Shown here: positions 35,747 through 62,805 of the stretch, piece by piece
Layout: the number at the start of each line of letters is the position of its first letter
Position numbering within the stretch: the stretch's first letter is position 1
Source: Patescibacteria group bacterium
GTDB taxonomy: Bacteria; Patescibacteriota; Microgenomatia; UBA1406
Direction: 5' to 3'
Length of the DNA stretch: 64,000 bases
Assembly: GCA_041665145.1 (NCBI GenBank)
Contig: JBAYJK010000001.1
Span: forward strand, 293,629-357,628
The notes under the pieces: generated by a model
Seen by the model: the letters and a program-made list of their open reading frames with translations, nothing else
Database searches by the model: none
Told to the model about the DNA's origin: nothing
Program-made: the position numbers and the translations under genes

Positions 35747-35965
35747 ATGTACCTTCTATCACTCTTTCCTATAAAACTCAGCATTCATCAATTAGTGCTT
35801 ATCACCAACTCCATAGTTTTAATCGGCCTTTTGATTGCCGTGGAACTGTGGTCGACAAATGACACCCATAAAGACAAAGCGAAATATTACTACCCGCTGA
35901 TTATGTTGTTTATATTCCTCATGATGTATGCCGGATATGTACAGTTTGCAACACCCAACCTATGA
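35747..35965 (+). CDS. small membrane protein
   Basis: 72 aa with two hydrophobic helices. TAGAAT lies 6 nt upstream of the ATG, and the stop overlaps the next start as ATGA. Confidence 0.4.
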   Translation: MYLLSLFPIKLSIHQLVLITNSIVLIGLLIAVELWSTNDTHKDKAKYYYPLIMLFIFLMMYAGYVQFATPNL

Positions 35966-36705
35966 GTAACTTACGTAAAAACCAAATTTTCATTGCACTT
36001 GCCGCCATTCTTATACTCGCATCACGCATGATCTCTTTTTATTCCCAGGACTACGGGTATCTGGTAAATACAACGCTCTTTGTCGTGTTTGTGTTGTTAA
36101 GCATGTACCGGAAAGATTTACAGAGAGTGCTTATATTACTCTCGGTTATTCCTGCCGCCACAGTTTTCACCATTTCTCTTCCCGTTCCGGCTATTTTCCA
36201 AACACTTCTTTTTTACGCCGCCATATTCCTGACAGGTTTGATTTACTGGTATTTTTTTGAGGAGCAAAAAAAAGTAACCGTATTGCGCTCCGTCACCGCC
36301 AAGCAACTGGTTGTGGGTGTCATCGCCGGGCAAGCGCTCGGGATCGCAAGTTATGTGTTGCTTCCCAAAGTGTATTGGCCGCAGGAGCTCATGACTGCCG
36401 GGCGCATAACTGTTCCCCTGGTTTTTCTTATTTTTATATTGCTTGCAATAACCGAAGAATTGTACTTTCGCCGTTTATTGCAGAAGGAGGTGGGGGAAGT
36501 GGTGAACCCGCATAATGCGCTCGCACTTTCGGCGTGGCTCTACGCATCCCTTGCCGGATCTTTGGGTTTCGGCGTCACATTCTTAGCGCTTGTTGCGGGA
36601 ATCACAATGGCACTCTTGTATTCGGAGAACAAATCGACACTCCAAACGGTCATAGTAAATATCACTATGAAGCTTGTTTTTCTTGCCGCTATCTTCCTTA
36701 TGTGA
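35962..36705 (+). CDS. CPBP-family (CAAX protease-like) intramembrane protease
   Basis: Polytopic protein with the ITEELYFRRLLQ motif (EExxxR), diagnostic of the CPBP/Rce1-like family. Confidence 0.7.
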   Translation: MSNLRKNQIFIALAAILILASRMISFYSQDYGYLVNTTLFVVFVLLSMYRKDLQRVLILLSVIPAATVFTISLPVPAIFQTLLFYAAIFLTGLIYWYFFEEQKKVTVLRSVTAKQLVVGVIAGQALGIASYVLLPKVYWPQELMTAGRITVPLVFLIFILLAITEELYFRRLLQKEVGEVVNPHNALALSAWLYASLAGSLGFGVTFLALVAGITMALLYSENKSTLQTVIVNITMKLVFLAAIFLM

Positions 36706-36749
36706 TTATGATCATTGTGTTGTGAAGAGTAATGATGTATATTGACATC

Positions 36750-37193
36750 ATGAAATCCCGTTTAGCAGGTTTTATTGCCCTGTTTTTATGCCTTTCATTG
36801 TTGATGGTTCCTGCTGTTTTGGCAAATAACCCAGGAGTAACCAGAGTTAGGGGAAATGTCTATGATCAAGACAACGGGGGAGCGGGAATCGGTGGTCTCA
36901 CCGTCAACGTAACTTGCAACGGAAATTCACGAAACGCCACAACTGACGGCAACGGATTATATGTGGTCGACTATACCCGTTCGGAATGCCCGCAGTTTGG
37001 ACCGGTCAGTTCTGCCGTTTCGCACAACGGACAATCCCAGTCTGACACGGTATATGTATCCGACGTGTATACTGCTACGATGGACTTTTACTTCGGGACG
37101 ATAAGCGTTCCGGAATTCGGCATGATCCCGGGAGCGATTGCGGCAATTGGATCAATTGGAACATACCTGGCACTTAGGAGAAAGAGAACCTAA
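36750..37193 (+). CDS. small secreted protein with a C-terminal VPEFG-TM-RRKR sorting signal (PEF/PEFG-CTERM-like)
   Basis: Signal peptide MKSRLAGFIALFLCLSLLMVPAVLA. A carboxypeptidase-regulatory-like beta domain (RGNVYDQDN...GLTVNVTCNGNSRNATTDGNGLY). The C-terminus is ISVPEFGMIPGAIAAIGSIGTYLALRRKRT. The start is trimmed from the ORF-track 36732, with TATATT 6 nt upstream. Confidence 0.65.
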   Translation: MKSRLAGFIALFLCLSLLMVPAVLANNPGVTRVRGNVYDQDNGGAGIGGLTVNVTCNGNSRNATTDGNGLYVVDYTRSECPQFGPVSSAVSHNGQSQSDTVYVSDVYTATMDFYFGTISVPEFGMIPGAIAAIGSIGTYLALRRKRT

Positions 37194-37315
37194 ATTCAAA
37201 GCTCAAATCTACAACCTTCAAATCAAATTCAAAATTCAAATGATAACCTTCAAAAAGTTTTGAATTTTAGATTTTGAATTTGATTTGTCATTTGTCTATT
37301 TGAATTTTGAATTTT
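37192..37315. repeat. AT-rich inverted-repeat hairpin element, gene-less form (copy B)
   Basis: AAATTCAAAGCTCAAATCTACAA...TGATTTGTCATTTGTCTATTTGAATTTTGAATTT. It starts inside the upstream stop codon. Confidence 0.85.
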
Positions 37316-37340
37316 ACTCATCTGCGCCTATAATACCTCT

Positions 37341-38288
37341 ATGCCTTTATTAAAGCGCTTACTCTTATTTTCTGCGCTGTTTATTGTCCTCTCCGGCCTT
37401 GTGGGTCCGTGGGTGATCAGCACCAAGCTTCTCTACGGTTTCTATTTCTTTATCTACCCGAACATGGGGAAGTTACTCATGTTTTCGTTTATCGTGTTTG
37501 TACTTCTTACAAAAGACAAGTTGAATTCAATCGGTGTCATCCCCGCGAAGGCGGGGATCCAGGAGCATCTGGATTCCCGGTCACGTATGCCGGGAATGAC
37601 AGTATCAACTATTCTTTGTTTTCTTTCCTTCGTTCTTTTGATTCCCTTCTACGTATTCGGAAACATGTTGCTCAAAGAACCTTCATTTTTCACCAATCTT
37701 CCTCTTTCTCTCTTTGTTCATTTCCTGTTAATTTCTTCTGTTTTGACTTTATTTGTTTCGGTTTTCGGATTTCGATATTCGATTTTTTTTGCAAAGCAGT
37801 TTAAACGTGAACTAGTTGTCTGTTGCCTGTTGTCTGTTATCTACTATTTCGCGATTTTTTACGTATGGCATTTCTGGCCCCTACTTTCTGACGCAGTTTT
37901 GCAGTCGGTAAAATTCCTGTTCTCCCTATCATATAAAGACGTTATGTTTATTCCTCCACGTGCATTGTACGTTCACAACTTTACGGTGAGTATTGAAGAA
38001 GCCTGTTCGGGCCTCGACAGCATGTTCTTGTTTACGACGCTGTACATACTTATTGGGATTGTTGAACGGAAAACATTCAACATTGCTAAATTGTTGCTAT
38101 TGCTACCCGTAGCGCTTGTCGGCTTATTTCTTGTGAATGTTCTGCGCGTGTATACGCTTATTCTCGTCGGTGTGCTCATAGATCCGAAGCTGACCGTACA
38201 ACTCTTTCACACGTACCTTGGTATGGTTCTCTTCATGGTCTACTTTGCCTTATTTTGGAAAATCTTTTACGGATGGATGAGGAAGTAG
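37341..38288 (+). CDS. exosortase/archaeosortase-family transpeptidase
   Basis: Polytopic protein with the family Cys/Arg/His signature blocks: SIEEACSGLDSMF, LVNVLRVYTLIL and FHTYLGMVLF. It carries an in-frame GC-rich repeat insertion (see findings). Confidence 0.7.
   Translation: MPLLKRLLLFSALFIVLSGLVGPWVISTKLLYGFYFFIYPNMGKLLMFSFIVFVLLTKDKLNSIGVIPAKAGIQEHLDSRSRMPGMTVSTILCFLSFVLLIPFYVFGNMLLKEPSFFTNLPLSLFVHFLLISSVLTLFVSVFGFRYSIFFAKQFKRELVVCCLLSVIYYFAIFYVWHFWPLLSDAVLQSVKFLFSLSYKDVMFIPPRALYVHNFTVSIEEACSGLDSMFLFTTLYILIGIVERKTFNIAKLLLLLPVALVGLFLVNVLRVYTLILVGVLIDPKLTVQLFHTYLGMVLFMVYFALFWKIFYGWMRK
37536..37601. repeat. GC-rich triple-hairpin palindromic element (copy 1), in frame inside the exosortase CDS
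   Basis: GTCAT-CCCCGCGAAGGCGGGG-ATCCAGGAGCATCTGGAT-TCCCGGTCACGTATGCCGGGA-ATGAC, translated as VIPAKAGIQEHLDSRSRMPGMT. Confidence 0.8.
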
Positions 38289-38290
38289 GC

Positions 38291-38397
38291 AAAATTCAAA
38301 GCTCCAATAACAACCTTCAAGTCAAATTCAAAATTCAAATTTTAAACATTTAGATTTTGAATTTGATTTGTCATTTGTCTATTTGAATTTTGAATTT
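38291..38397. repeat. AT-rich inverted-repeat hairpin element, gene-less form (copy C)
   Basis: AAAATTCAAAGCTCCAATAACAA...TGATTTGTCATTTGTCTATTTGAATTTTGAATTT. It begins 3 nt after the exosortase stop. Confidence 0.85.
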
Positions 38398-38412
38398 ATT
38401 TTTCAATTCGGA

Positions 38413-38912: not shown

Positions 38913-38917
38913 GTGCA

Positions 38918-39394
38918 GAAATTCAAAGATCAAATCTACAACCCTCAATTGAAATTCAAATGACAACCTTCAATTGAAATCTAAAATTCAAAATACAAAG
39001 AATTATTTCTTGTTAATGGCGCCGAATATGAGAGAGAGTTCTTTGGCTTCCTGAAGGAGCCTAGTAATTAAAGCACGTTGTGTTTCATCTGCAAACTCGA
39101 TCATTCGCAACCAATGGATAGTTTCCTTCGCCTCTTTTTTGCAAATACCAATCTTTGCATGGAAATCTTTTTTGGAGTCGGCACCGTTGGCTTCCATATA
39201 GTTGGCTCCGACACTTGTTGCAGATCTTATTATTTGCGAGATTAGTGGAACAGTAATTATTGTTTTTCTGATGCTGTTGCACAACGAAATTATTTGAGTG
39301 CCAAATAGGGTAGTTCGCACCTCAAGGTCGTATATTTTTTCTCCATTTGAATTTTGAATTTGATTTGTCATTTGTAGATTTGAAGGTTGAATTT
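38918..39394. repeat. 477-bp inverted-repeat-bounded unit enclosing a four-helix-bundle gene (long form, copy 1)
   Basis: 85-nt left arm, a minus-strand ORF at 39003..39371, and a 23-nt right arm. The termini are AAATTCAAAGATCAAATCTACAA on the left and, as reverse complement, AAATTCAACCTTCAAATCTACAA on the right. Confidence 0.75.
39003..39371 (-). CDS. four-helix-bundle protein (23S rRNA intervening-sequence protein family)
   Basis: 122 aa with LISQIIRSATSVGANYMEANGADSKKDFHAKIGICKKEAKETIHWLRMI, which matches the TIGR02436/PF05635-type pattern (R.A.S...N..EA......DF..K...A.KE..ET..WL). Confidence 0.8.
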   Translation of the reverse strand: MTNQIQNSNGEKIYDLEVRTTLFGTQIISLCNSIRKTIITVPLISQIIRSATSVGANYMEANGADSKKDFHAKIGICKKEAKETIHWLRMIEFADETQRALITRLLQEAKELSLIFGAINKK

Positions 39395-39470
39395 ATTATC
39401 CACCTCATGTTTATCAAATACCACGGTTTATAGGCATCATCTACGCCCAAAGTACTGTATAATGTATCAC

Positions 39471-50861: not shown

Positions 50862-50873
50862 ATTATTTTTTAT

Positions 50874-50989
50874 AAATTCAAAGCTCAAATGACAACCTTC
50901 AATTGAAATTCAAAATTCAAGCTTCAAAATAGTTTTGAATTTTAGATTTTGAATTTGATTTGTCATTTGTATATTTGATTTTTGAATTT
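50874..50989. repeat. AT-rich inverted-repeat hairpin element, gene-less form (copy F; coordinates +/-2)
   Basis: AAATTCAAAGCTCAAATGACAACCTTCAATTGAAATTCAAAATTCAAGC...TGATTTGTCATTTGTATATTTGATTTTTGAATTT. It abuts the stop codon of 50990..51445. Confidence 0.8.
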
Positions 50990-51445
50990 TTATTCTTTCA
51001 CTCCATTCAGCCAGAAGTGTATCGTTTGTTTTTTATTAACCAGGTTTACCTCCACTTTTACCCGATCATGGTTTTCACCAATAGAGTAGGTTATTTTTTT
51101 GGTTATGTACGCGTCATGTATAAGCACAAACGTGCCGGTTTGCAAAACCTGTTGGTAACCGTCCGCGCCAGTTGCTTTAACCGTATACGGGTATTCCATG
51201 TCAGTGTATTCTAGGTTATGTACGGTAAATTTGAACGTTTGTTCTTCTTCCGGGATTATTCGGGTAGGTAATTTAAGGTGGTCTTCAAAATAAAGCTCCG
51301 TAAACGTTTCGGGTAAGGGAACCAATTTCCAGACTTTTAGCTGTTCATAGATGGCGTCCTGCTTGACATAGAGCGCCACAGCAAACATTGTGATGAATAT
51401 AAACGTCAGAATTAACACCAGTTTTTGTAACCACGGTTTTACCAT
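50990..51445 (-). CDS. membrane-anchored hypothetical protein
   Basis: The start is trimmed to MVKPWLQKLVLILTFIFITMFAVALYV (N-terminal TM anchor), followed by a beta-rich ectodomain. No family recognised. Confidence 0.4.
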   Translation of the reverse strand: MVKPWLQKLVLILTFIFITMFAVALYVKQDAIYEQLKVWKLVPLPETFTELYFEDHLKLPTRIIPEEEQTFKFTVHNLEYTDMEYPYTVKATGADGYQQVLQTGTFVLIHDAYITKKITYSIGENHDRVKVEVNLVNKKQTIHFWLNGVKE

Positions 51446-51514
51446 AAGGCAGGATTTGTAACTTACAGCACAATTATACTGGAAATAGCCTAGAATTAGC
51501 AAGCGAACAAGGGT

Positions 51515-51694
51515 AAATTCAAAGCTCAAATGACAACCTTCAATTGAAATTCAAAATCTGAATGTCACCCCCGGAACAAAGTACCGGGGATCCAGATTCC
51601 ATCCCTGGATTCCCGACTGGATCGGGAATGACACCTTTTGGAGTTTTGAATTTTGAGTTTCATTTGTAGATTTGTCCATTTGAATTTTGAATTT
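51515..51694. repeat. composite repeat: AT-rich hairpin element (copy G) with a GC-rich triple-hairpin element nested at its centre (51563..51633)
   Basis: AAATTCAAAGCTCAAATGACAACCTTCAATTGAAATTCAAAATCTGAA [TGTCACCCCCGGAACAAAGTACCGGGGATCCAGATTCCATCCCTGGATTCCCGACTGGATCGGGAATGACA] CCTTTTGGAGTTTTGAATTTTGAGTTTCATTTGTAGATTTGTCCATTTGAATTTTGAATTT. Confidence 0.8.
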
Positions 51695-51717
51695 AAGAAA
51701 AATATATAATAGAACCA

Positions 51718-53274
51718 ATGTCTCCAAACCGTTCCAATAAAAAACTTCTCTTCTTCCTCATTTTCGCCACCATAGTTTTGGGAGTAACCAACGTGTATTT
51801 GTTTGTGGACCGGTATGTTACGGCTAAAAACGAAGCTGTTCGAAAGGAAAACGAGCGCAAAGCGATTCTCGAAGGCATGTCTGCTGTGCCGACACAGGTA
51901 ACTGTGGATTTGTCCAAAAAAACCGTCACTGGCTCTCCTTTGATCTTCGGAGGTTCCAGTTTTCCAGACCAATTACACACTGGAGTAATGGATAAACTGA
52001 AAGCTGTTGGTGTAACGAATATTCGAAAGGACTTTTTTTTGGAATACACCTCTCCAGCTGGAATAACCTTGGACAGCTATAGAAGAAACGATAACAATAT
52101 TCAAGATATAGCCAATTGGAGGACAAAAGATATTGGTTGGGCGAATACGAATTTCGTGTCAGCCAAAAGTCGAGGAATGAAGATGATGGGAATAGTAACG
52201 TATGCTCCAAAATGGCTGACACATTCAGGTAATGAGCATGGAGTTCCAAAAGATTGGGGAGTATATGAGGATATTGTAAAAAAACTATATAAGCACTATA
52301 GAGACAATTTGGATTATCTTGAAATGTGGAATGAGCCAACATACAAATATTTTTTGGATCCAGCGGGTAGCGGGTTAACTCGGGAAGAGGCGTATCTACA
52401 AATATTTCTGCATGCATCTAAAGCTATTCGAGAAGTAGATAGTGAGATAAATGATGGAAAGAAAATTCCCGTTGGTGGTTTTGTAGCTCACACTCCCACG
52501 GAAACAGGATTGCTTGAATACCTTATGCAAAACGAAGAATTTAGAAAGTCTATTAATTTTATCAGCTACCACAATTACGAACATGTGCCGGAACCATCAT
52601 GGACGGCATACAAAACGATACTTGCAAAATACGGAATGCAAAATTTACCTGTTTTTTTGACGGAATGGAATTATTCTCCAGGCTTTAAAGAATACAATTC
52701 CAAACTAGTCGGTGATGAAGCAGTAACGTACACAGGAGATAAACTAACTAGCTTTTTGAACATGGGCCTTGCCGGGGCAAACTATTTTGCCCTTATTGCA
52801 GAAGATGCCAAATTTACCACACCATGGAGCGGATACTTGGCTTTTTATAAATGGGAAAATGGGAAAGCGACATTACTTCCTCAAGCAAAAACGTGGAGGC
52901 TGATGAGTGTTAGCCTTGCTCTCGGGAAAGGGAAAAGCCAAGTATATGAGACAAGCTATAAAGACAAAGAAATTAACGCTGCCGGGTTTACAAACGTAAA
53001 GGGCCAAAAAGGTACGGTGCTCGTGAACAAGGGAACCACTGGCAAATTGGTAAACGTTTCTTTTAAAAACTTAGGTGCCCCGAAACATGTAATTATCGAA
53101 GAATTTATTGCCGATCCCGATCATGACGGAGGGACTGCAGTGCGGAAAGAGTACGTGGATGAACCCGGAGAAGCGTTGAACTTTACCATGTATGTGCCGG
53201 CGCAGAGCGTGGTTGGTGTTTTGTTGTCGGATACAAGTAAGATGCAGGAAATACTCAAGCTATTCTTCAAATAG
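51718..53274 (+). CDS. membrane-anchored clan GH-A glycoside hydrolase-like protein
   Basis: N-terminal TM anchor. LEMWNEPTY (NEP acid/base-type motif) and VFLTEWNYS (TEW nucleophile-type motif), as in GH5/GH39-like TIM-barrel enzymes. Confidence 0.5.
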   Translation: MSPNRSNKKLLFFLIFATIVLGVTNVYLFVDRYVTAKNEAVRKENERKAILEGMSAVPTQVTVDLSKKTVTGSPLIFGGSSFPDQLHTGVMDKLKAVGVTNIRKDFFLEYTSPAGITLDSYRRNDNNIQDIANWRTKDIGWANTNFVSAKSRGMKMMGIVTYAPKWLTHSGNEHGVPKDWGVYEDIVKKLYKHYRDNLDYLEMWNEPTYKYFLDPAGSGLTREEAYLQIFLHASKAIREVDSEINDGKKIPVGGFVAHTPTETGLLEYLMQNEEFRKSINFISYHNYEHVPEPSWTAYKTILAKYGMQNLPVFLTEWNYSPGFKEYNSKLVGDEAVTYTGDKLTSFLNMGLAGANYFALIAEDAKFTTPWSGYLAFYKWENGKATLLPQAKTWRLMSVSLALGKGKSQVYETSYKDKEINAAGFTNVKGQKGTVLVNKGTTGKLVNVSFKNLGAPKHVIIEEFIADPDHDGGTAVRKEYVDEPGEALNFTMYVPAQSVVGVLLSDTSKMQEILKLFFK

Positions 53275-53750
53275 AAATTCAAAATTCAAATCTACAACCC
53301 TCAATTGAAATTCAAATGACAGCCTTCAATTGAAATCTAAAATTCAAAATTCAAAGAATCATTTCTTGTTAATGGCACCGAAAATGAGTGAAAGTTCTTT
53401 GGCTTCCTGAAGAAGCTTCAGAATAAACGATTTCTGAGTTCCGTCGGCAAATTCAATCATTCGCAACCAATGAATTGTTTCTTTCGACTCTTTTTTGCAG
53501 ATACTTATTTTTGCATGGAAATCTTTTTTTGAATCGGCGCCATTAGCTTCCATGTAATTGGCGCCCACACTTGTTGCAGATCTGATAATCTGCGAAATCA
53601 ACGGTGCAGTGACAATAGTTTTCTTTACATTGTTACAAAGAGTGATTACTTGAGTACCGAATACGCTTGTCCGTTCTTCCAGATCGTATATTTTCTCTCC
53701 ATTTGAATTTTGTGCTTGATTTGTCATTTGTAGATTTGAAGGTTGAGTTT
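53274..53750. repeat. 477-bp inverted-repeat-bounded unit enclosing a four-helix-bundle gene (long form, copy 2)
   Basis: It has the same length and layout as 38918..39394. The left arms match at 81 of 85 nt and the right arms at 22 of 23 nt by hand alignment. Confidence 0.75.
53359..53727 (-). CDS. four-helix-bundle protein (23S rRNA intervening-sequence protein family), paralog
   Basis: 122 aa. It differs from the 39003..39371 product at about 19 positions and shares the SQIIRSATSVGANYMEANGADSKKDFHAKI...KETIHWLRMIEFAD core. Confidence 0.8.
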   Translation of the reverse strand: MTNQAQNSNGEKIYDLEERTSVFGTQVITLCNNVKKTIVTAPLISQIIRSATSVGANYMEANGADSKKDFHAKISICKKESKETIHWLRMIEFADGTQKSFILKLLQEAKELSLIFGAINKK

Positions 53751-53877
53751 CTAATAAGTCTTATGATTCCTGACTCCTAACTCTTGACTCATATATAGTT
53801 TCCCTCGCTTCTCTCGGGAAATCAACGGTTTATACACCTCAATACTCATACTATAGGTTTATTTGATATAATACCAT

Positions 53878-54720
53878 ATGTCAATTTCTGTTGATCACCC
53901 ACGGTTCGTAGCCGATTTAAGTCGCAAAGTAGCTCGTCCCGAAGATTATGTTCGGGAATCTGTTGGAGACACAACATTGATCGGGATATCCCATATACCT
54001 ATCACAGATAAACGCTCTACGGCAATTGTGCAATTATTACGAGAAGCAAAAACTCATGCCCATCTTATTTTAGAAATACCTGATCACCAAATAGCCCGGG
54101 CAAACCCAAATGGCTTAGAGGCGCTTATGGCCAGAGAATTTAGACGTTTGGGAAAAGGCTCCTCAATACATTCGCTTGAACCCCGTATGGACTTGGGATT
54201 TTACCAGAATGTGTATGGCTTTCCTGCAATACTCTATATTGCCTGTGTGGCATTTGGAAATCTGATAAACAGCAAATCTGCATTACAATATCCGCTTGAC
54301 ACGGCAAAGACTATAAGACAATTATTTTTGGATATTGAGTCTGCCGGAAATGTTCCGGTCGAAGTTATAACAACAGCACTCGCCCGGAAGCTTCGGATAC
54401 TCAAAATGTCGCCCGGAGGAGAGTTGTATAAGGCAATGTTTCAGGCAGTGAACGTTGCCAGTCAATATGCAGGTTACCTCAGAGAATATGAAGTGCTTGG
54501 ACCGACATTTAATAGGCTCACAGAACTTCTAAACGGCATGAAACTGGCTGTTGTGGGGAGTGCACATATTCCGGCTTTTCATAAAGCTTTAGCAAAAGAA
54601 CCATTTGATCGCCCGATGAATTGGCAGGTATTTCTAAGTGAGATAGCCGGACCGGTGTATGCCGGATATGTAGCAAAATTTCAAGCTATTCTCGAGGAAG
54701 AAATGCAAAAACTAGCATGA
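53878..54720 (+). CDS. TraB/GumN-like family protein (tentative)
   Basis: Two GxxH-type blocks spaced as in TraB/PrgY/GumN proteins: TLIGISHIPITDKRS near the N-terminus and LAVVGSAHIPAFHKAL near the C-terminus. TGATATAAT lies 5 nt upstream of the ATG. Confidence 0.4.
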   Translation: MSISVDHPRFVADLSRKVARPEDYVRESVGDTTLIGISHIPITDKRSTAIVQLLREAKTHAHLILEIPDHQIARANPNGLEALMAREFRRLGKGSSIHSLEPRMDLGFYQNVYGFPAILYIACVAFGNLINSKSALQYPLDTAKTIRQLFLDIESAGNVPVEVITTALARKLRILKMSPGGELYKAMFQAVNVASQYAGYLREYEVLGPTFNRLTELLNGMKLAVVGSAHIPAFHKALAKEPFDRPMNWQVFLSEIAGPVYAGYVAKFQAILEEEMQKLA

Positions 54721-54777
54721 CATAAAAAGTTGTCCATATTTGATTTCTTATCTGCAGTGCGTTATAATAGTCCGTAT

Positions 54778-55680
54778 ATGACACGTGAGCGAACGCCTAA
54801 TCCTACAGACCTGCTTGCTGCTCTCAGAGACACATCCGGATATGTTGATTTTGCACGAGTAGTCGTGGCTCGAAAGATGGGTAGAGTAGAGCTTTCCGCT
54901 ATTGGAGCAGAACTTGACCAGATATTCAGAAAAGACTTGGTTATGTGTGCCCGACAAGGTATTGTAGAATCGGTTCCTTCAGGCACTCTTAATTGTGTTC
55001 CCAGGCCAAACTTATTTGATGTTTCTGTTGCCGCGGTTTTTCGGGCGCTTGATCAACTGAAAATTATGGTTCCCCTGACAGAAATACCCCACGTACAACG
55101 TGTGGAGGCAGTTATGGCTGCATTTACCCGGAGAGCTCTTCGGGAAATACGTATGACTTCACGAAATGCACAGTACATGAATCCCGGAATCGTTCTTGCC
55201 GAAGATATGCTGGATGAAGCGTCGGATGCCCGTATGGGTTTGTTGTTAGGAATAAGTGCACCTGAGCTGAGAAGAAGTTTGGTAGATCCGCATGTTGCCG
55301 AAATGAAAGATTCTGCAGCTATTCGGCAACGGGAGGATTCTATGCCTAAAGCCGGACGGAATATACAGATAGGTGAACAAATGGTTGCTACGGCGCACGA
55401 GGGCTTCAGTATGACTCAGTCGCCGCGTGATTCTCTGTATTATTGGATTGCCAGGGCACAAGCATTTGATATTCCCCTCAACGATCATGAAGTAGTATTG
55501 CTCCATGCAATTGCGCAAACAACAAATGCCCGACATACGCTTCATCAGACAATTGAGGCCAACAAGCTTTCTCCCGCGCTTGACCAACCGTCGTCCGAGG
55601 CACTTATTGCCGGTATGTCAGACTTGAATGCTCTCCACACGTGGGGAAGAGCAAGGACGGGAATTGTGACTGCTAAGTAA
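54778..55680 (+). CDS. hypothetical protein
   Basis: Long ORF with no family recognised. ATG 54778 (MTRERTPNP...) is preferred over the TTG at 54730. Confidence 0.35.
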   Translation: MTRERTPNPTDLLAALRDTSGYVDFARVVVARKMGRVELSAIGAELDQIFRKDLVMCARQGIVESVPSGTLNCVPRPNLFDVSVAAVFRALDQLKIMVPLTEIPHVQRVEAVMAAFTRRALREIRMTSRNAQYMNPGIVLAEDMLDEASDARMGLLLGISAPELRRSLVDPHVAEMKDSAAIRQREDSMPKAGRNIQIGEQMVATAHEGFSMTQSPRDSLYYWIARAQAFDIPLNDHEVVLLHAIAQTTNARHTLHQTIEANKLSPALDQPSSEALIAGMSDLNALHTWGRARTGIVTAK

Positions 55681-55785
55681 AATTCAAAGCTCAAATGACA
55701 ACCTTCAATTGAAATTCAAAGTTCAAATTTTAAATATTTAGATTTTGAATTTGATTTGTCATTTGTAGATTTGAATTTTGAATTT
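55679..55785. repeat. AT-rich inverted-repeat hairpin element, gene-less form (copy I)
   Basis: AAAATTCAAAGCTCAAATGACAACCTTCAATTGAAATTCAAAGTTCAAATTTTAAATATTTAGATTTTGAATTTGATTTGTCATTTGTAGATTTGAATTTTGAATTT. It overlaps the upstream stop codon. Confidence 0.85.
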
Positions 55786-55821
55786 AGTGTTTCTTCCCAG
55801 TACGCATACTATAGGCCGAAT

Positions 55822-57087
55822 ATGGTATACTACCCCATGTCGACCGAAGGGCAAAACAGCGGTTTTCCGTACTACCCACACAACCTGCGTATATCGAGTG
55901 CGCGCGGGCTCGAATATGCGGTTACCGTTATGACCAGGGAACTTCCTCGTGATCTTATTGACCATGTCGAGGTAAATCAGGCAGCCCACGACAGACTTTC
56001 CCCGGATCAAAAAGAGTATACAACTGTAGATTGGCTGGTGAGTCATGCGTGGCTCAGCACCGAACGGGGTGACAGGGAGGGCAAAAACGTACTTACTCCC
56101 TACGGGTTCGGGCGTGTAATCCCGGTAGAATACGGGTCGTATATGGCTAACGGATTGCACTATGGGGTAATAACACAAAAGGGCGGTCTGGTTGCCGGGG
56201 CCGCATACCTTGCCTCCCGCTATTTAGATACCAACGACACCACATATCCGTATGGATTATTCTCAAAAGGAAACGCGGATGTAGAAACAGGAACGAGCAA
56301 TTGTGCCCTGAATTATGGGTTGCGCAGTTCATTGGTATTGGGGACAATCATTCTTAAAACTCAAGCGTTGGAAAAGTGGATTAAAACCGCATGGGATGTT
56401 GACCCATTGTCACAGGACACGCTGGTGAGAATTTTGAGACATTTCAATTCGAACAAAGAAGTTCCATCAATTATATTCCGCATGAATAGTCAACTTGCCC
56501 GTATTACCGATTCAAATATTGATAGCGGCCTCAGTTTGGGTCACGTTCCTGAGTTTTATAACCATAGACGTAATGCAAAGCTGGCAAACCAACGGATCGG
56601 TTTTATATGTTGGGTGCACGAATTAATGGCGCAGAACAATTATGATCCTCGGCTTGTTGCAGCACTTAATAAACTTGCATATAGTCCCCTCGGAACTGCA
56701 ACGGAAGAAGACTTTAAACTCTTTCTGACGTTTTACACGCAACTGATTACAACGGAAAAAGAGAAGTTGGCTAAACTGTTTGCAGAACGATCTGGCGAAC
56801 CACAATGCGTGCGGATTTTAAATCTTAACATGCGTGACAAAGATACCGAACCATCCTATATACGTACTGATTATGAAGCTGATCCGGGCGATTCGGATTA
56901 TCCAAAATCGGTATATTTTGGCGACATGACCTCCAAACGGTACCTCAGTAATTTGCATCACGTTGTGGCGTGTCATTGGAGCACATTGAAACATTTCTTT
57001 AGTCATTTAGATCGTGCAAACATGAGAATATTTAACTTCCTTGAAGCGCACGATATTCATATCAATGAAATATTTCTTCATAATTAA
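55822..57087 (+). CDS. hypothetical protein
   Basis: Long ORF with no family recognised. The ORF-track start 55756 is repeat-encoded (MSFVDLNFEF). The start is probably ATG 55822 or 55837, and TGGTATACT lies 5 nt before 55837. Confidence 0.35.
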   Translation: MVYYPMSTEGQNSGFPYYPHNLRISSARGLEYAVTVMTRELPRDLIDHVEVNQAAHDRLSPDQKEYTTVDWLVSHAWLSTERGDREGKNVLTPYGFGRVIPVEYGSYMANGLHYGVITQKGGLVAGAAYLASRYLDTNDTTYPYGLFSKGNADVETGTSNCALNYGLRSSLVLGTIILKTQALEKWIKTAWDVDPLSQDTLVRILRHFNSNKEVPSIIFRMNSQLARITDSNIDSGLSLGHVPEFYNHRRNAKLANQRIGFICWVHELMAQNNYDPRLVAALNKLAYSPLGTATEEDFKLFLTFYTQLITTEKEKLAKLFAERSGEPQCVRILNLNMRDKDTEPSYIRTDYEADPGDSDYPKSVYFGDMTSKRYLSNLHHVVACHWSTLKHFFSHLDRANMRIFNFLEAHDIHINEIFLHN

Positions 57088-57090
57088 CCC

Positions 57091-57993
57091 ATGACATATA
57101 TTGAATTTCAACCACCACAACTACCTGTTCCGGACTATCCGAAAAGCCCTCAACCATGGTCTCAATTTGATTCGGCGCGACCTGTCGAATGGATTCCGAC
57201 GATGATTCCCGCCGATAAGCTTACGGATATGGTGCGAATGGTAAACAAAGGAGTATGGATTGCCCGCCGCACAGATCCGCAAACCGCTGTGCTTGTACCG
57301 GCACCTGCTTTTAATGAAACCTGGAGTATTGCAAACGGGGGAGGCGTGACTGAAGTATGGTTACGGACAGCAGATGTCATGCCGCATGCTACGGTACCAT
57401 ATGACGCGTGGAATGTCCAAGATTACAAATTGACTGTTTATCCACAGTTTAGTGAACAGGCAGTTAGTACGGTTCACACTCTCGCTCATACGCTGGGACG
57501 GGATCCGGAACGATATCGTCAGGGTGATGCGATGCATAACCGCACGCTTGCATTTTTGAATACACCGTTTCAAGCAGTTGTCACTCCGCACGTACTGGTA
57601 GTAGGAAATATGAATAAAGCTCTTTTTACTATTACCGATCGAGGCGTATTTTATCGGGAATCAACGGGATTGGCACAGATACGGAAGCCGTATGAGGAAT
57701 ACTATCAATTGCCGGGAGTTCGTTATATCCCGCCCAGTAACGGGGAATTCGGTGAGTTCAGAATACATCTTGCGACTTTGTCGGTGCCCAATGATATTTT
57801 TGGAGAAAAAAGAGGTTCTATGCCGACCGTATTCGAAAAATATTTGACGGTTCGGTTTTGCAGCACATCGCCCAACGATATTGGTTCATCAGTACCATGT
57901 ACATTGGGAGAACCACACCGGAGATCGTTCGATTCACAATCGGTCCGTGATAGAATCGTAAATGTTTCGATAGATCTAGAAATGAAAAACTAG
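57091..57993 (+). CDS. hypothetical protein
   Basis: 300-aa ORF starting 3 nt after the upstream stop. No family recognised. Confidence 0.35.
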   Translation: MTYIEFQPPQLPVPDYPKSPQPWSQFDSARPVEWIPTMIPADKLTDMVRMVNKGVWIARRTDPQTAVLVPAPAFNETWSIANGGGVTEVWLRTADVMPHATVPYDAWNVQDYKLTVYPQFSEQAVSTVHTLAHTLGRDPERYRQGDAMHNRTLAFLNTPFQAVVTPHVLVVGNMNKALFTITDRGVFYRESTGLAQIRKPYEEYYQLPGVRYIPPSNGEFGEFRIHLATLSVPNDIFGEKRGSMPTVFEKYLTVRFCSTSPNDIGSSVPCTLGEPHRRSFDSQSVRDRIVNVSIDLEMKN

Positions 57994-58005
57994 TAATTTA
58001 TAATT

Positions 58006-58770
58006 ATGGCCATGAATCTCGAACAAACAGCCACACTGAGAGAATTAGAACGTTCCCTGTCGCAACGTGCCGAACTTGCACATCGCGAACCATGTGAGCT
58101 TCTGGAGTTTTGGCGGAGATTCTATGAGTTACTTGCCCGACAAATAGCATATAGAGAACGTGCTGAACCGGAGTTTTGCGACGTACCTGAACTTCCGTGG
58201 TCTACGGACGCGGTTCGTGAACTCGTGCATGACGGATGGTATGTGGTGTATATGCCCCCGGAGTTTTCCGAAGAAGCTCATCGCCCGCTCCTTATGTCAG
58301 TACTTCCTATGGTAGTGCAGAGGCCGGAGTTTAGTCCACTGGATTTGACTGATCCGCATATGCCGGTGGAACGCGAGTCTGCAGTTACGGAGGGGTGGGT
58401 TGCTGTTCGCCCGGAAACACCGCAAACCCTTATGTGTTCCTCGACCTTTCCGTGCGTTATTAAAGCACTTGAATCACGCGTCTTGCATCCGGCGACACTC
58501 AATATGGGGATAGTTACTGCTGTTTTACATGATGCTATCATGCGAACAAAACCAAGACCCCTGATGCGCCCAAGTTTTTTGTGTATGGGAACAAGCGGAG
58601 GAGTTAAACCTACAACAGCACATCTTGACAGGCACACGTATCATGGAATTCGGTATCTCTTAGATATTCAACCCCAACCGTTCGGTAAAAAAAGCGTCTT
58701 GACTATCGCGGAAGAACCCGGTCCGGAGATTCCCGGAATGTGCGGGGTTTTGGCGGTAAGACGATTATAG
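58006..58770 (+). CDS. hypothetical protein
   Basis: 254-aa ORF with no family recognised. Confidence 0.35.
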   Translation: MAMNLEQTATLRELERSLSQRAELAHREPCELLEFWRRFYELLARQIAYRERAEPEFCDVPELPWSTDAVRELVHDGWYVVYMPPEFSEEAHRPLLMSVLPMVVQRPEFSPLDLTDPHMPVERESAVTEGWVAVRPETPQTLMCSSTFPCVIKALESRVLHPATLNMGIVTAVLHDAIMRTKPRPLMRPSFLCMGTSGGVKPTTAHLDRHTYHGIRYLLDIQPQPFGKKSVLTIAEEPGPEIPGMCGVLAVRRL

Positions 58771-58807
58771 TTAATGGTTAATAGTTTAGAGTTTATAGTT
58801 AATAGTT
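58766..58807. repeat. heptanucleotide-periodic array (6 units)
   Basis: TATAGTT AATGGTT AATAGTT TAGAGTT TATAGTT AATAGTT. It overlaps the stop of the upstream gene and lies upstream of the third four-helix-bundle gene. Confidence 0.8.
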
Positions 58808-58863
58808 GGGAATGTGGTATATAAACCGTTGTTTTGTCACGAACTAAGTAATACGATGGACCC

Positions 58864-59241
58864 GTGATCAATAGTTTCACTGATTTAAGCTCATGGCAAA
58901 TTTCTCATCAACTCGTCATTGAGGTTTATCAAGTGACTAAATTATTTCCTACTACTGAAACGTACTCTCTCACAGATCAGATGAGAAGGGCAGCGGTATC
59001 GATAACAAGTAATATTGCTGAGGGTTTCGGCAGAAAAGCTGTTAAAGAGAAAATCCAGTTCTACCACTTATCACTTGGATCAACTACCGAGTTACATAAT
59101 CAATGCATGTTGGCAAGAGATCTGGGATACGTAAATACTGATTACTATGAAAAAATCGAACAAAGAATAATTGTAGTTTACAAGCTTATTTGGGCTTCGA
59201 TCCGCTCATTCAAACAATTTTCAAATCACTCTAAACTATAA
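58864..59241 (+). CDS. four-helix-bundle protein (23S rRNA intervening-sequence protein family), divergent third copy
   Basis: GTG start. FTDLSSWQISHQLVIEVYQVTKLFPTTETYSLTDQMRRAAVSITSNIAEGFGRKAVKEKIQFYHLSLGSTTELHNQ is a textbook pattern for this family. Confidence 0.85.
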   Translation: MINSFTDLSSWQISHQLVIEVYQVTKLFPTTETYSLTDQMRRAAVSITSNIAEGFGRKAVKEKIQFYHLSLGSTTELHNQCMLARDLGYVNTDYYEKIEQRIIVVYKLIWASIRSFKQFSNHSKL

Positions 59242-59257
59242 ACCATCAACCCTAAAC
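59230..59257. repeat. heptanucleotide-periodic array (4 units), inverted relative to 58766..58807
   Basis: TCTAAAC TATAAAC CATCAAC CCTAAAC. The reverse complement reads GTTTAGG GTTGATG GTTTATA GTTTAGA, the same GTTNNNN phase as the upstream array. It overlaps the 3' end of the gene. Confidence 0.7.
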
Positions 59258-59421: not shown

Positions 59422-59460
59422 ATGTATTGAAAAACTAATAATGCCTGTATTCAATATAAC

Positions 59461-59744
59461 AAATTCAAAATTCAAATGACAACCCTCAAGTGAAATTCAA
59501 AATTCGAATCTACAACCCTCAATTCAAATTCAAAGCTCAAACATCATTCCCGCACAAGTGATGTCATTCCCGCGTAGGCGGGAATCCAGGAACTTTGTAT
59601 CTGGATCCCCGGTATTTGTATTCCGGGGATGACAAACATATCTAGATTGCCGCGCTTCATCCCGCTGAGCGGGACTTCGCTCGCAATGACGCCTTTTGAA
59701 TTTTGAATTTGATTTGTCATTTGTCTATTTGAATTTTGAGTTTT
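59461..59744. repeat. composite repeat: AT-rich hairpin element (copy J) with nested GC-rich elements (59541..59693)
   Basis: The arms are AAATTCAAAATTCAAATGACAACCCTCAAG... and ...TTTTGAATTTTGAATTTGATTTGTCATTTGTCTATTTGAATTTTGAGTTTT. The centre holds a triple-hairpin copy at 59563..59633 plus a second GC-rich palindrome (TTGCCGCGCTTCATCCCGCTGAGCGGGACTTCGCTCGCAATGAC). Confidence 0.8.
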
Positions 59745-59767
59745 ACCTGTCCTGGTATAATACCCAC

Positions 59768-61018
59768 ATGCGCAAAACCGTCGTGATTTTTTTTCTCTGT
59801 ATCGTTCTTGCTGTTTCCTATGTGGTCACTCACGTGTTTCGTGCCTACAGTGTCGAGGGGGGAAAAACCCGACTGTTCCCCATACAATCCATAGATACTA
59901 TGAAATATTCGCGGGATATTGCGCGGGAGAAATTACATGATGCCTCGTTCGACAAACATATAGATACACAAGTTAAAAACATCGCCGCAACCGGGGCAAC
60001 GCACATTGCTATCGCAACTCCATATGACGAAGAGTTTATTCCGTTTTTGACCCGTTGGGTCAGGGCTGCGAGGAAATACAACCTGAATGTATGGTTCAGG
60101 GGTAATTTTTCCGGATGGGAAGAATGGTTTGATTACCCGGAAATCACGAAAGATGAACATATCCGAAAAACAAAAGCATTCATCGCACGGCACGCAGATA
60201 TGTTTGTTGACAACGACTTATTCAGCGCGTGTCCCGAATGCGAAAATGGGGCGCTTGGTGATCCGCGACAGACAGGGCGGCTTGCAGAGTATCGGCAATT
60301 TCTGATTGATGAGTACCAGGTAACAACCGAGGCGTTCAACCGGATCGGGAAGCGCGTGCAATCAAACATCCTGTCAATGAACGGCGATGTTGCCCGACTG
60401 GTTATGGATAGGGAAACGACCCGCGAACTCGGAGGAATGGTGACGATCGACCATTATGTCGAAACACCGGAACAATTGGTGGGGGACGCGGAGCGAATTG
60501 CAGGTAACAGCGGAGGACTGGTAATGCTCGGCGAATTCGGGACACCGATTCCCGATATCCATGGTGAGTTGACTGAAGATCAACAGGCGATGTGGGTGGG
60601 AGCGGGACTGTATGGATTGGCAAAATCCAAAAGCATTGCCGGAGTTAATTATTGGACCAACAAAGGGAGCAGTACGGCGCTGTGGAATGACGACGATACC
60701 CCGCGCGCGGTTGTTTCGACCATCACCGATTTTTACAAACCGCTTGTTATCCGGGGAACGGTGCGTGACGAACTCGGTTTCTTGCTTTCGGATGTAACGG
60801 TGACCTCCCCATTTGAAACAGTACATACGAAGACCGGGGCGTACAGAGTTTTCTTTATCACCGGCGATCACATAGAATTCCAGAAGCCGGGATACATAAA
60901 CGTAAGCGAATCTCTGCGGCGTACGGATGTGCGTGACTTGGTATTGGATGTAACGATGCAGCCCACTAACCCCTCATTACTCTATAAGATATTATTGCCG
61001 ATATTACGTAGAAAGTAG
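59768..61018 (+). CDS. membrane-anchored TIM-barrel glycosidase-like protein with a C-terminal carboxypeptidase-regulatory-like domain (tentative)
   Basis: The start is trimmed to ATG 59768 (MRKTVVIFFLCIVLAVSYVV), with TGGTATAAT 6 nt upstream. CPECENG and MLGEFG are possible clan-A catalytic Glu blocks. The C-terminus is IRGTVRDELGFLLSDVTVTS...TGAYRVF. Confidence 0.4.
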   Translation: MRKTVVIFFLCIVLAVSYVVTHVFRAYSVEGGKTRLFPIQSIDTMKYSRDIAREKLHDASFDKHIDTQVKNIAATGATHIAIATPYDEEFIPFLTRWVRAARKYNLNVWFRGNFSGWEEWFDYPEITKDEHIRKTKAFIARHADMFVDNDLFSACPECENGALGDPRQTGRLAEYRQFLIDEYQVTTEAFNRIGKRVQSNILSMNGDVARLVMDRETTRELGGMVTIDHYVETPEQLVGDAERIAGNSGGLVMLGEFGTPIPDIHGELTEDQQAMWVGAGLYGLAKSKSIAGVNYWTNKGSSTALWNDDDTPRAVVSTITDFYKPLVIRGTVRDELGFLLSDVTVTSPFETVHTKTGAYRVFFITGDHIEFQKPGYINVSESLRRTDVRDLVLDVTMQPTNPSLLYKILLPILRRK

Positions 61019-61657
61019 TTTTTCAAATTTCGAGAGATCAGCAATGGTATAGAGATTTTCCTTTTTGATGAGATATTTTTGGTCAATGAGCTTTTGCAGT
61101 TCCCTGCTTACCGTTTCTCGGGTGACTCCCGCGAAACTACCGACCTCTTTGTGAGTGAGGGGCATGGTAATTTCTACGCTCATGCCTGTTCTTTTTCCGA
61201 ACCGTCTGGAAAAAACCAGAAAAACAACAACAACTTTACATCGTGCGCAGGTAGACATAATGTTTTCGAGCATGCTGCTCATCGTTTCCAAACCGCGGGA
61301 AAGACGGGTTGTAAGATCGAAAAGTACTTCCGGATTGTTGTGTAAAAAGGTAATAACCGCTTCTTTCGGCGCGCGTCGGGTAACGACCCGGGAAGTGGCC
61401 TCAAAAAAATAGTGGTTCGGGAGGTGTCCATTCAGTACATAGACGGTGGGTATATATGTCCCGGCTTTAAACAGCATGATTGCTTTTTCTTCGCCGTCGG
61501 CGGACAGAGAGTATTGTCGGATATATCCCGACTCTATATAGTAAATGTGTTGCAGCGGATTTTCATCTGCCCGAATTATTACGTCGCCTTTTTCAAACGT
61601 CCGTGAGTCAAATTGGCTGAAAAAAGCTTTCAACTTATTTTCAACTGAAGAATTCAT
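61004..61657 (-). CDS. Crp/Fnr-family transcriptional regulator (second copy)
   Basis: cNMP-binding-like N-domain and the HTH LTHKEVGSFAGVTRETVSRELQKLIDQKYL. Confidence 0.8.
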   Translation of the reverse strand: MNSSVENKLKAFFSQFDSRTFEKGDVIIRADENPLQHIYYIESGYIRQYSLSADGEEKAIMLFKAGTYIPTVYVLNGHLPNHYFFEATSRVVTRRAPKEAVITFLHNNPEVLFDLTTRLSRGLETMSSMLENIMSTCARCKVVVVFLVFSRRFGKRTGMSVEITMPLTHKEVGSFAGVTRETVSRELQKLIDQKYLIKKENLYTIADLSKFEKLLST

Positions 61658-61797: not shown

Positions 61798-61825
61798 TTG
61801 ACAAAAAAAGCACGTTTGTTATCAT
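61798..61825 (+). promoter_or_regulatory. sigma70-type promoter TTGACA-N16-TATCAT
   Basis: TTGACA at 61798-61803 and TATCAT at 61820-61825. ATG 61833 follows after 7 nt. Confidence 0.5.
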
Positions 61826-61832
61826 GAAGTCC

Positions 61833-62642
61833 ATGAAAAAAATAACGGCAAAAAACCAAACCCCTGTTACAAAATCCGTACCAGCTCCCGTTGCATCACA
61901 ACCCATGATGGATCCGATGCAGCAGATAGTCGCGATGCAGAAAATGATGCAGAAAATGTTTCTCATCGTTATTGTGCTTGTCGTAGCGGTTGGAGGTTTA
62001 TTGGTGAAAGACTTGGTGTTGAATAAAAATGCAGCGCCTGCAGCAAATACCGCGCCGACAGCAGGTGAACCGACTGACCCGTTTGCCTTAATCACGAAGT
62101 ATCCGACCATACAAAAAGATGATTATGTCCAGGGAGACAAAAACAGTAAATACCAGATGATTACGTACTCGGATTTGCAATGTCCGTTCTGTCATCGGTT
62201 CCATCCGACAACCCTTCAATTTCTTGAAAATCATAAGGATGTAGCGTTTGCGTACCGTCACTATCCGCTGACACAGATTCATCCGCAAGCCGTTCCGGCA
62301 GCAATAGCTTCGGAATGTGTGGCAAAACTGGGAGGTACGGATGCCTTTTTCAAGTTTATCGACAAGGTGAATACTGCCCCCGAAGATGCAGAAGGAGGAC
62401 TTGATGTAACCAAACTTGCAGGCTATGCGGTAGAATCCGGAGTCGACGAGTTTGCGTTCACCGCTTGTAATGATGCCCAGGACCAATCCCGCGTGGATGC
62501 GCAGCAAAAAACAGGAAATGAATTCGGAGTTTCGGGAACACCTTCATCATTCTTGGTTAATGTCAAAGACAAGAAGGCGGTCATGATCCCCGGAGCGTAT
62601 CCGATCGAACAGGTCGAACAGGCGTTTGAGAAGATCAAGTAA
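61833..62642 (+). CDS. DsbA-like thiol:disulfide oxidoreductase, membrane-anchored
   Basis: TM anchor FLIVIVLVVAVGGLLV and the thioredoxin-fold CxxC motif SDLQCPFCHRF. The ORF-track start 61824 lies inside the -10 box, so ATG 61833 is preferred. Confidence 0.7.
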   Translation: MKKITAKNQTPVTKSVPAPVASQPMMDPMQQIVAMQKMMQKMFLIVIVLVVAVGGLLVKDLVLNKNAAPAANTAPTAGEPTDPFALITKYPTIQKDDYVQGDKNSKYQMITYSDLQCPFCHRFHPTTLQFLENHKDVAFAYRHYPLTQIHPQAVPAAIASECVAKLGGTDAFFKFIDKVNTAPEDAEGGLDVTKLAGYAVESGVDEFAFTACNDAQDQSRVDAQQKTGNEFGVSGTPSSFLVNVKDKKAVMIPGAYPIEQVEQAFEKIK

Positions 62643-62655
62643 CGTTTGGGTTTGT

Positions 62656-62788
62656 AAATTCAAAGCACAAATAGACAAATTTACAAATCAAGCTTAAAAT
62701 TCAAAGGCTGAAACTTCAGGAATATTATGTTTGGTAACATTTGATTTTTGAATTTGATTTGTCATTTGTGGATTTGAATTTTGAATTT
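62656..62788. repeat. AT-rich inverted-repeat hairpin element, gene-less form (copy K, most divergent left arm)
   Basis: AAATTCAAAGCACAAATAGACAAATTTACAAATCAAGC...TTGATTTTTGAATTTGATTTGTCATTTGTGGATTTGAATTTTGAATTTT. Confidence 0.75.
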
Positions 62789-62805
62789 TCTGCTAAGATA
62801 ATTCT

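Follow-up and report, generated by a model that had tools for sequence, protein, structure and literature searches.

Five probable accessory genes in a lineage-specific segment of a Patescibacteria envelope-glycosylation locus, one of them a probable remote TraB/GumN relative

The stretch analysed here, hereafter the window, comprises 64,000 nucleotides (nt) of a Patescibacteria group bacterium (assembly GCA_041665145.1, contig JBAYJK010000001.1, positions 293,629 to 357,628) and contains, at 53878-58770, a block of five consecutive plus-strand genes (genes 1 to 5), which an earlier sequence-only reading had singled out as a possibly mobile or exchangeable cassette bracketed by genes for four-helix-bundle (4HB) proteins. 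We lean, with a confidence only a little better than even, towards the reading that these are accessory orphan genes, carried as cargo by a segment, peculiar to this lineage, of an envelope-glycosylation locus. One of them, gene 1, adds a new, remote member to a known superfamily, and the other four genes are orphans; that the five form one new system is not demonstrated, and it finds at present no cross-genome support. The block consists of the following features, with protein lengths in amino acids (aa) and the genes as given by the open reading frame (ORF) listing:

53864 to 53872, plus strand: extended -10-like box TGATATAAT, 5 nt before the ATG of gene 1, read from the sequence
53878 to 54720, plus strand: gene 1, 280 aa
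54778 to 55680, plus strand: gene 2, 300 aa (316 aa from an alternative TTG start at 54730)
55822 to 57087, plus strand: gene 3, 421 aa (416 aa from a start at 55837)
57091 to 57993, plus strand: gene 4, 300 aa
58006 to 58770, plus strand: gene 5, 254 aa (252 aa from a start at 58012)

The segment between two conserved genes

Evidence for this reading comes from 40 related loci, retrieved by a scan with two flanking proteins. No relative of any of the five genes was found in these 40 loci. In five of them (L055, L057, L058, L060 and L061) the gene order is a GT-C gene, a PMT_2-type glycosyltransferase gene and a homologue of a conserved gene here called p416, the last two being directly adjacent in four of the five loci and separated in L057 by a hairpin-borne 4HB gene. 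In the window the same two genes enclose a long stretch of DNA:

33431 to 35119, plus strand: PMT_2-type glycosyltransferase gene (Pfam PF13231), the left anchor
35120 to 59767: lineage-specific segment of 24.6 kb, missing between the PMT_2 and p416 homologues of the five related loci
59768 to 61018, plus strand: p416, a conserved 416-aa gene, the right anchor

The PMT_2 homologues are up to 58% identical to the window gene at 33431-35119 (L057, 8005-9426), and those of p416, which has no Pfam match, are 45-54% identical in the five loci and 45-59% identical in a set of eight (L055-L061 and L064). With the anchors lying close together in five relatives at 45-66% identity, the missing piece is the whole 24.6 kb and not the block alone. 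The proposal of an exchangeable module was right to the extent that the block occurs in none of the 40 loci and lies inside a segment missing from five relatives, but it is not as a discrete unit that the block is missing. The segment contains acetyltransferase, Rce1-like, exosortase and flippase genes, a low-GC glycosyltransferase cluster, a DUF2206 gene, a GH39-like gene, three 4HB units and the five-gene block, and nine of the eleven copies of a hairpin repeat found in the window fall inside it, one at each edge. The gene tables covering 30-68 kb hold no integrase, transposase or other recombinase, and there is no tRNA gene at the block borders, the sole tRNA of the window (at 5085) being also the only match in an Rfam scan of it.

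This arrangement resembles O-antigen- and capsule-type variable loci, in that the PMT_2 and p416 anchors enclose 24.6 kb of lineage-specific genes, among them a low-GC glycosyltransferase cluster, a flippase and acetyltransferases. It differs from them in two respects: none of the five block proteins can be recognised as an enzyme of a sugar pathway, all of them being predicted to be soluble (no transmembrane segment was predicted in any of them), and the segment is punctuated by an unusual family of hairpin/4HB elements. We propose that the 24.6-kb segment grew between two genes of a cell-envelope glycosylation locus that are otherwise neighbours, and that the five-gene run would be part of its cargo. 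Nearly every gap between transcription units here is occupied by a hairpin element specific to this genome, which may or may not carry a 4HB ORF. By a loose analogy with other variable surface-glycan cargo, the role of the block would most likely be accessory and related to the cell surface or to host interaction.

Composition gave a mixed picture. Spot counts of single lines in genes 3 and 5 had roughly indicated about 50% G+C, against about 23-30% in lines of the neighbouring glycosylation module, a contrast that 1-kb windows did not bear out, since for the block they give 0.43-0.47, equal to the window average of about 0.43. The sequence-only reading had also held that a composition no different from the genome average would speak against a mobile module, and this is what was found: overall composition equals the genome average and synonymous codon usage of the block genes follows the native preferences of the host, with no difference from other genes in G+C at third codon positions (p = 0.38). 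At codon positions 1 and 2, G+C of the block genes lies above that of 42 other genes (p = 3e-4), and the encoded proteins are rich in arginine and poor in lysine, with a K/(K+R) ratio of 0.19-0.45 versus a mean of 0.60 (p = 8e-4) and an enrichment of proline in genes 4 and 5. Because the amino-acid make-up looks foreign while the silent sites look native, the data would fit an ancient acquisition from a source richer in G+C, the silent sites having since been ameliorated.

The segment and its surroundings offered some further observations. The distance from SecA (10210-12915) to DsbA (61824-62642) is 48.9 kb in the window versus 1.5-4.5 kb in the three closest relatives (L027, L034 and L062), and hence the whole neighbourhood is reshaped. 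Between 41000 and 49000, the cluster of glycosyltransferase, flippase and DUF2206 genes has a low G+C of 0.32-0.38 versus about 0.43; it was probably acquired separately and is part of the surface-glycan locus. The stretch 35962-38288 carries an Rce1-like (CPBP) protease gene together with an exosortase EpsH gene, which hints at PEP-CTERM-type protein sorting linked to the glycan locus. The 518-aa gene next to the block (51718-53274) has only a weak GH39 match (E = 5.6e-7).

Coding status, start signals and the shared reading frame

The five plus-strand ORFs first described by the sequence-only reading appear with the same coordinates in the ORF listing, and the gaps of 3 and 12 nt that it gave between the last three genes are correct on the sequence; gene 4 starts 3 nt past the stop of gene 3, and the gap between genes 4 and 5 is 12-18 nt depending on the start chosen for gene 5. 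The per-codon log-likelihood of the block genes was 0.10-0.14 in frame 0 and at most 0.004 in the other frames, and falls inside the range of 42 other genes. The five ORFs are real protein-coding genes. No paralogues of them were found in the window, nor among the five proteins themselves.

A strong extended -10 element had been reported just upstream of the block, and TGATATAAT does stand 5 nt before the first ATG, but it is no mark of the block. TATAAT or TATACT occurs 5-12 nt before the start of many window genes, and a box so common genome-wide must therefore be regarded as a native habit. Examples outside the block are found with the genes at 16263-17165, 37341-38288, 51718, 59768 and 61004-61657. 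Within it, a -10-like box precedes all five genes, 5-11 nt before an ATG: gene 2 has a TTGATT-17-TATAAT site (54740-54768) that ends 9 nt before the ATG, gene 3 has TATACT at 55826-55831, upstream of the candidate start at 55837, and gene 5 has TATAAT at 57999-58004. Shine-Dalgarno sequences are essentially absent from this genome, as judged from the window genes inspected; this absence, together with the position of the boxes 5-12 nt before starts, suggests that leaderless or near-leaderless mRNAs are widespread in it. By the same -10-box rule, the starts at 55837 for gene 3 and 58012 for gene 5 are probably the correct ones, and the NCBI gene calls also begin these two genes there.

All five ORFs lie in one reading frame, an arrangement with a chance of about 1/81, and only one stop codon separates genes 1 and 2, as well as genes 3 and 4. 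Both facts would be expected if a single giant gene, once encoding about 1,600 aa, had been split into these ORFs by nonsense mutations. We consider this origin highly improbable. Over its whole length, gene 1 aligns with homologues of 260-308 aa that stand alone, by which the idea is largely refuted for that gene; each ORF opens with an ATG behind a -10-like box; there are no frameshifts; two consecutive stops stand between genes 4 and 5, and a hairpin element between genes 2 and 3; and the stop codons are of mixed types, which excludes recoding. In order, the stops between the ORFs are TGA, TAA then TGA, TAA, and TAG-TAA, and this mixture of TGA, TAA and TAG, together with the double stop before gene 5, ruled out stop-codon recoding or read-through as a way of joining them.

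Gene 1 and the four orphans

Gene 1 matched nothing in Pfam, NCBIfam, PHROGs, PADLOC or the sequences of PDB. Among 1.84 billion representatives, searched exhaustively with HMMER, it has 26 homologues of similar length and 25-32% identity, and the subfamily is therefore very rare, amounting to 27 clusters among the 1.84 billion. In an alignment of 25 sequences, residues E66, G114, E205, G227, H230, P246 and W249 are invariant, whereas G36, H39, L63, E81, L100, E101, Y113, R202, P209, G220 and K222 are nearly so. The resulting pattern is GxxH ... E ... E ... R..E ... GxxH, in which E66, E205 and H230 are kept in all members and H39 and E101 in at least 90% of them.

Two GxxH blocks, TLIGISHIP and VVGSAHIP, had been taken by the sequence-only reading as a hint of TraB/GumN affinity. 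Both are present in gene 1, and the hint holds at the level of remote homology. Aligned by hhalign to a TraB/GumN profile built from eight sequences only (E. coli YbaP plus seven proteins annotated as TraB/GumN in plasmid records), the gene 1 family scored a suggestive Prob of 86.7%, below the usual 95% level, with a pairwise E = 4.3e-6, as compared with a Prob of 0.2% and E = 0.3 in reversed-sequence controls. Both GxxH motifs and the strand-end Glu are in register over 225 columns of a full-length alignment (with a permissive mact of 0.05): G36/H39, E66 and G227/H230 of the gene 1 family align with G37/H40, E66 and G248/H251 of YbaP, and likewise with the seven other annotated proteins. The order of the residues and their nearly equal spacing are those of YbaP, R227 included, with about 27 residues from GxxH to the Glu, and the gene 1 family has a further conserved Glu and Arg and a C-terminal VGxxH. 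The central part of the gene 1 protein diverges from TraB/GumN. GumN, after which the family is named, comes from the xanthan (gum) polysaccharide gene cluster, and gene 1 too sits in a polysaccharide locus.

The TraB/PrgY/GumN family (PF01963) falls, together with Tiki, erythromycin esterases, ChaN and RRSP, within the TIKI superfamily, whose fold is of the alpha/beta type and has a parallel beta-sheet at its core. This superfamily is defined by a 2His/2Glu catalytic set (PMC6254334), and the residues that match this set in the sequence alignment are all present and conserved in gene 1. Judged by these alignments, gene 1 is a remote TraB/GumN relative in the TIKI superfamily, from a rare and unannotated subfamily, and is probably a hydrolase. 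Its product would be a soluble enzyme of the TIKI/TraB/GumN type, in which H39, H230, E66 and either E101 or E205 would, by analogy, activate a water molecule for the cleavage of a peptide or ester bond. A Foldseek search of PDB with the single-sequence AlphaFold model of gene 1 returned no match at E <= 0.001.

The labelled members of the subfamily come from Patescibacteria, Microgenomates, a Limnocylindrales bin and a Nanoarchaeota bin; the contig of the Limnocylindrales bin also carries a pilin gene of a type IV secretion system. In all seven contexts read, the gene 1 homologue stands alone beside unrelated genes, among which are DNA ligase and Fic (in two genomes), MgtE, MacB/FtsX, a mechanosensitive channel with MazE, and NUDIX with aldehyde dehydrogenase. 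No relatives of genes 2-5 were found near it in the six contexts with readable DNA (L004-L014), and tblastn of genes 2-5 against loci L004-L012 gave no match. The sequence-only reading had asked whether the five genes co-occur across genomes, and for gene 1 this is not seen, its homologues being scattered, unlinked to the others and alone in the seven contexts; for genes 2-5 no homologue is known. One further member, P0032, a protein of 687 aa from a Logan contig, is a fusion in which the TraB-like domain occupies residues 405-663; its N-terminal 400 residues match neither Pfam nor genes 2-5. We also noted that 43 nt at the 3' end of the GH39-like gene (53242-53284) are 74% identical to a stretch at the 3' end of gene 1 (54668-54710), a similarity that is probably due to chance.

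The other four genes had been described as unrecognisable, and so they proved: genes 2-5 gave no meaningful match in Pfam, NCBIfam, PHROGs or PDB sequences, and no PADLOC-DB family was hit at E <= 1 by any of the five block proteins. A search of 5.8 billion clustered proteins with gene 3 recovered only gene 3 itself, and neither this gene nor the flanking GH39-like gene has close relatives in the GTDB species representatives. Clusters of the block proteins at 90% identity contained same-strain copies only, and all the copies recovered (from JGI 3300037810, an ENA assembly and two Logan runs) are identical save for one single-nucleotide polymorphism in 16.9 kb of the ENA assembly, for which reason a dN/dS analysis was discarded. 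The five proteins had no tblastn match in 50,697 phage and 72,556 plasmid records, and peptide-pattern scans of IMG/VR with each block gene were also negative. A similar scan of JGI metagenomes with genes 2, 4 and 5 returned nothing, not even the source contig, two of the six patterns having spanned artificial junctions. As far as these searches reach, genes 2-5 are lineage-specific orphan genes. The products of genes 2, 4 and 5 are predicted to be soluble, that of gene 2 being Arg-rich, that of gene 4 Pro-rich and that of gene 5 both Arg- and Pro-rich; a single-sequence AlphaFold model of gene 5 was unusable, with a predicted local distance difference test score (pLDDT) of 35.

These results bear on the possibility that the block is a decayed integrated element, that is, a prophage or plasmid of an unsampled Patescibacteria virus which has lost its hallmark genes. 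The foreign-looking amino-acid composition with ameliorated silent sites, the orphan content and the location within a segment missing from relatives would all fit such an origin. Yet there was no meaningful PHROG match, and none at all to the phage or plasmid records by tblastn or to IMG/VR by peptide pattern; neither an integrase nor a tRNA marks the borders; the ORFs are intact, each with a native -10 box; and gene 1 has chromosomal stand-alone relatives. We therefore regard a decayed element as unlikely.

In the accessory-cargo reading that we favour, genes 3-5 are possibly a co-expressed orphan trio, and they are packed tightly enough that they could act as one functional unit of soluble proteins. 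A second and more far-reaching possibility is that genes 3-5, possibly with gene 2, would make up a new self-contained soluble system, such as a module directed against phages or serving interaction with a host. Co-expression is suggested by the gaps of 3 and 12-18 nt, a variable island is the typical location of accessory systems, the composition is unusual, and the absence of a gene 3 homologue among the 5.8 billion proteins points the same way. However, there is no PADLOC match, no library recognised an enzymatic or nucleotide-binding motif, the structure models are unusable, and cross-genome conservation, which is the usual evidence for a system, cannot be shown. In our judgement this alternative, too, has little probability.

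Hairpin repeats, 4HB genes and the weight of the readings

The block is bordered on both sides by 4HB genes, here called 4HBa and 4HBb, and is interrupted by a hairpin. The repeats involved, and the eleven copies of the common hairpin in the window, are as follows:

53274 to 53758: hairpin unit with 4HBa (53359-53727, minus strand); arms 53274-53328 and 53693-53758; repeat families D1 and D2
55678 to 55793: solo hairpin between genes 2 and 3; repeat families D1, D2 and D5
58765 to 59255: hairpin unit with 4HBb (58864-59241, plus strand); arms 58765-58807 and 59213-59255; another repeat family
59459 to 59751: final hairpin copy, at the segment's right edge and immediately ahead of p416; repeat families D1-D3
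Hairpin copies 1-4: 12715-12772 (half copy), 35601-35732, 37191-37322 and 38290-38405
Hairpin copies 5-8: 38918-39402 (with a 4HB gene), 50872-50997, 51513-51702 and 53274-53758 (with 4HBa)
Hairpin copies 9-11: 55678-55793, 59459-59751 and 62677-62796

Both flanking genes match 4HB families strongly (4HBa: PF05635, 2.9e-15, and TIGR02436, 3.3e-20; 4HBb: PF05635, 5.9e-34, and TIGR02436, 2.1e-32). The left arm of the 4HBb unit overlaps the stop codon of gene 5, and its inverted arms are 405 nt apart. The 4HBa unit has a second copy at 38917-39402, whose first 300 nt (38917-39216) are 85% identical to 53273-53572; by blastn the match extends over 484 nt (38917-39394) at 83%. The common hairpin is an AT-rich palindrome of about 115 nt found at eleven places in the window, some copies carrying a 4HB ORF and others not; at 35-40 kb and 50.8-59.8 kb hardly any gap between transcription units is without one. 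4HBa is the loop cargo of one such hairpin, whereas 4HBb lies between arms of a different family. An AT-rich hairpin had been said to split the block after gene 2, and it is indeed found directly after that gene, at 55678-55793, with a predicted fold of -34.6 kcal/mol (z = -5.85). None of the 40 related loci has the exact hairpin core, and L057 lacks the solo-hairpin family.

Some features of these repeats deserve mention in their own right. Every 4HB (PF05635) gene seen forms the loop of a long inverted repeat (38918-39402, 53274-53758 and 58765-59255 in the window, and 9455-9927 in L057), and the arms are exactly 405 nt apart in two 4HB units. ORF-less copies are scattered near ORF-bearing ones, in the manner of non-autonomous and autonomous versions of one element. 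The SecA ORF contains the half copy (12715-12772) within its 3' end, and DsbA is followed by a full copy (62677-62796). Within the last AT-rich hairpin unit, at 59540-59690, there are short G+C-rich palindromes (such as gtcattcccgcgtaggcgggaatc and ccccggtatttgtattccgggg), possibly a second kind of repeat set within the first.

Three known kinds of element invite comparison. As regards intervening sequences of rRNA genes, the flanking genes match strongly the families of the 23S rRNA intervening-sequence proteins (PF05635/TIGR02436), and they likewise sit in the loop of a long inverted-repeat stem. In rRNA gene insertions of the Candidate Phyla Radiation, ORF-carrying and ORF-less versions are reported to coexist (PMC11270868), and ORF-carrying and ORF-less hairpins coexist here as well. 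The 4HB units of the window differ in that they lie between protein genes, and their link to the five genes is positional only. Like repetitive extragenic palindromes and miniature inverted-repeat transposable elements, the palindromes fold stably, number at least eleven and are almost always placed between transcription units; unlike them, they have a genome-specific sequence, some copies carry a 4HB ORF, and the window hairpins have no known transposase partner. Lastly, 4HBb has weak matches to the Avd proteins of diversity-generating retroelements (bAvd, E = 0.016; DivGenRetAVD, E = 2.5e-4), although these are far below the cut-offs (21 bits versus 80 for DivGenRetAVD). The gene tables for 30-68 kb list no reverse transcriptase, and no convincing pair of template and variable repeats was found, the sole candidate being 43 nt long at 74% identity; a link to such retroelements through an Avd-like 4HB protein was ruled out on these two grounds.

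The bracketing of the block by 4HB genes was thus confirmed insofar as both flanks are PF05635/TIGR02436 genes set in inverted repeats, but since the hairpin family occurs at eleven sites, being flanked by such elements is not specific to the five genes. This matters for the original proposal of a discrete mobile or exchangeable cassette, in which the five genes would travel together, bounded by the two 4HB/hairpin units. In its favour, 4HB genes in long inverted repeats abut both ends of the block, the 4HB hairpin of L057 lies exactly at the PMT_2/p416 junction where the present genome has its extra DNA, and the block is missing from all 40 related loci. Nevertheless, the flanking units are of two different repeat families, neither being a direct repeat of the other, and the common hairpin, besides recurring elsewhere in the window, splits the block itself. 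Elsewhere this hairpin sits between transcription units, and its presence between genes 2 and 3 counts against a single cassette, as does the -10-like box that each gene has of its own. Mobility fares no better: no integrase, transposase or other recombinase is annotated nearby, synonymous codon usage is native, the gene 1 family is a stand-alone chromosomal gene elsewhere, and all available copies are 100% identical, leaving no presence/absence polymorphism to observe. We consider a discrete cassette quite unlikely, even more so than a decayed element or a new soluble system.

The reading of the block as accessory cargo of a lineage-specific segment has points against it as well. The related genomes share only 45-66% protein identity, and consequently the difference in gene content could be old, or could reflect a rearrangement and not an insertion. 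The orphan status of genes 2, 4 and 5 is based on the family libraries, PDB, the 90%-identity clusters, the phage and plasmid tblastn, the peptide-pattern scans and the 40 related loci only, and no family-library match indicates a function for any of genes 2-5. As to gene 1, it had no match to PF01963 at E <= 1, which places it outside the family model; PF01963 in turn matched one of 25 members of the gene 1 family, at E = 0.17, and not the consensus, and the single-sequence AlphaFold model (pLDDT 41.8) is too poor to judge the fold. Finally, the common frame of the five ORFs is treated here as a coincidence, yet it is unexplained.

It should be considered that the hairpin/4HB elements may be a more interesting object than the block itself. 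A bolder scenario, to which we give about as little credence as to the discrete cassette, would have genes 3-5, perhaps with gene 2, as a new soluble multi-protein system that was delivered into the surface-glycan locus by undescribed hairpins carrying 4HB ORFs and by their ORF-less derivatives, which would create sites of insertion or recombination and so build variable islands in Patescibacteria. Returning to the reading of the block as accessory cargo, the genomes of Patescibacteria are small, and a 5-kb run of unassignable genes is a noticeable accessory share. The gene 1 branch of the TIKI/TraB/GumN group could enter family databases, and the 24.6-kb expansion of a conserved envelope-glycosylation locus would be useful for studies of surface diversification in these episymbionts.

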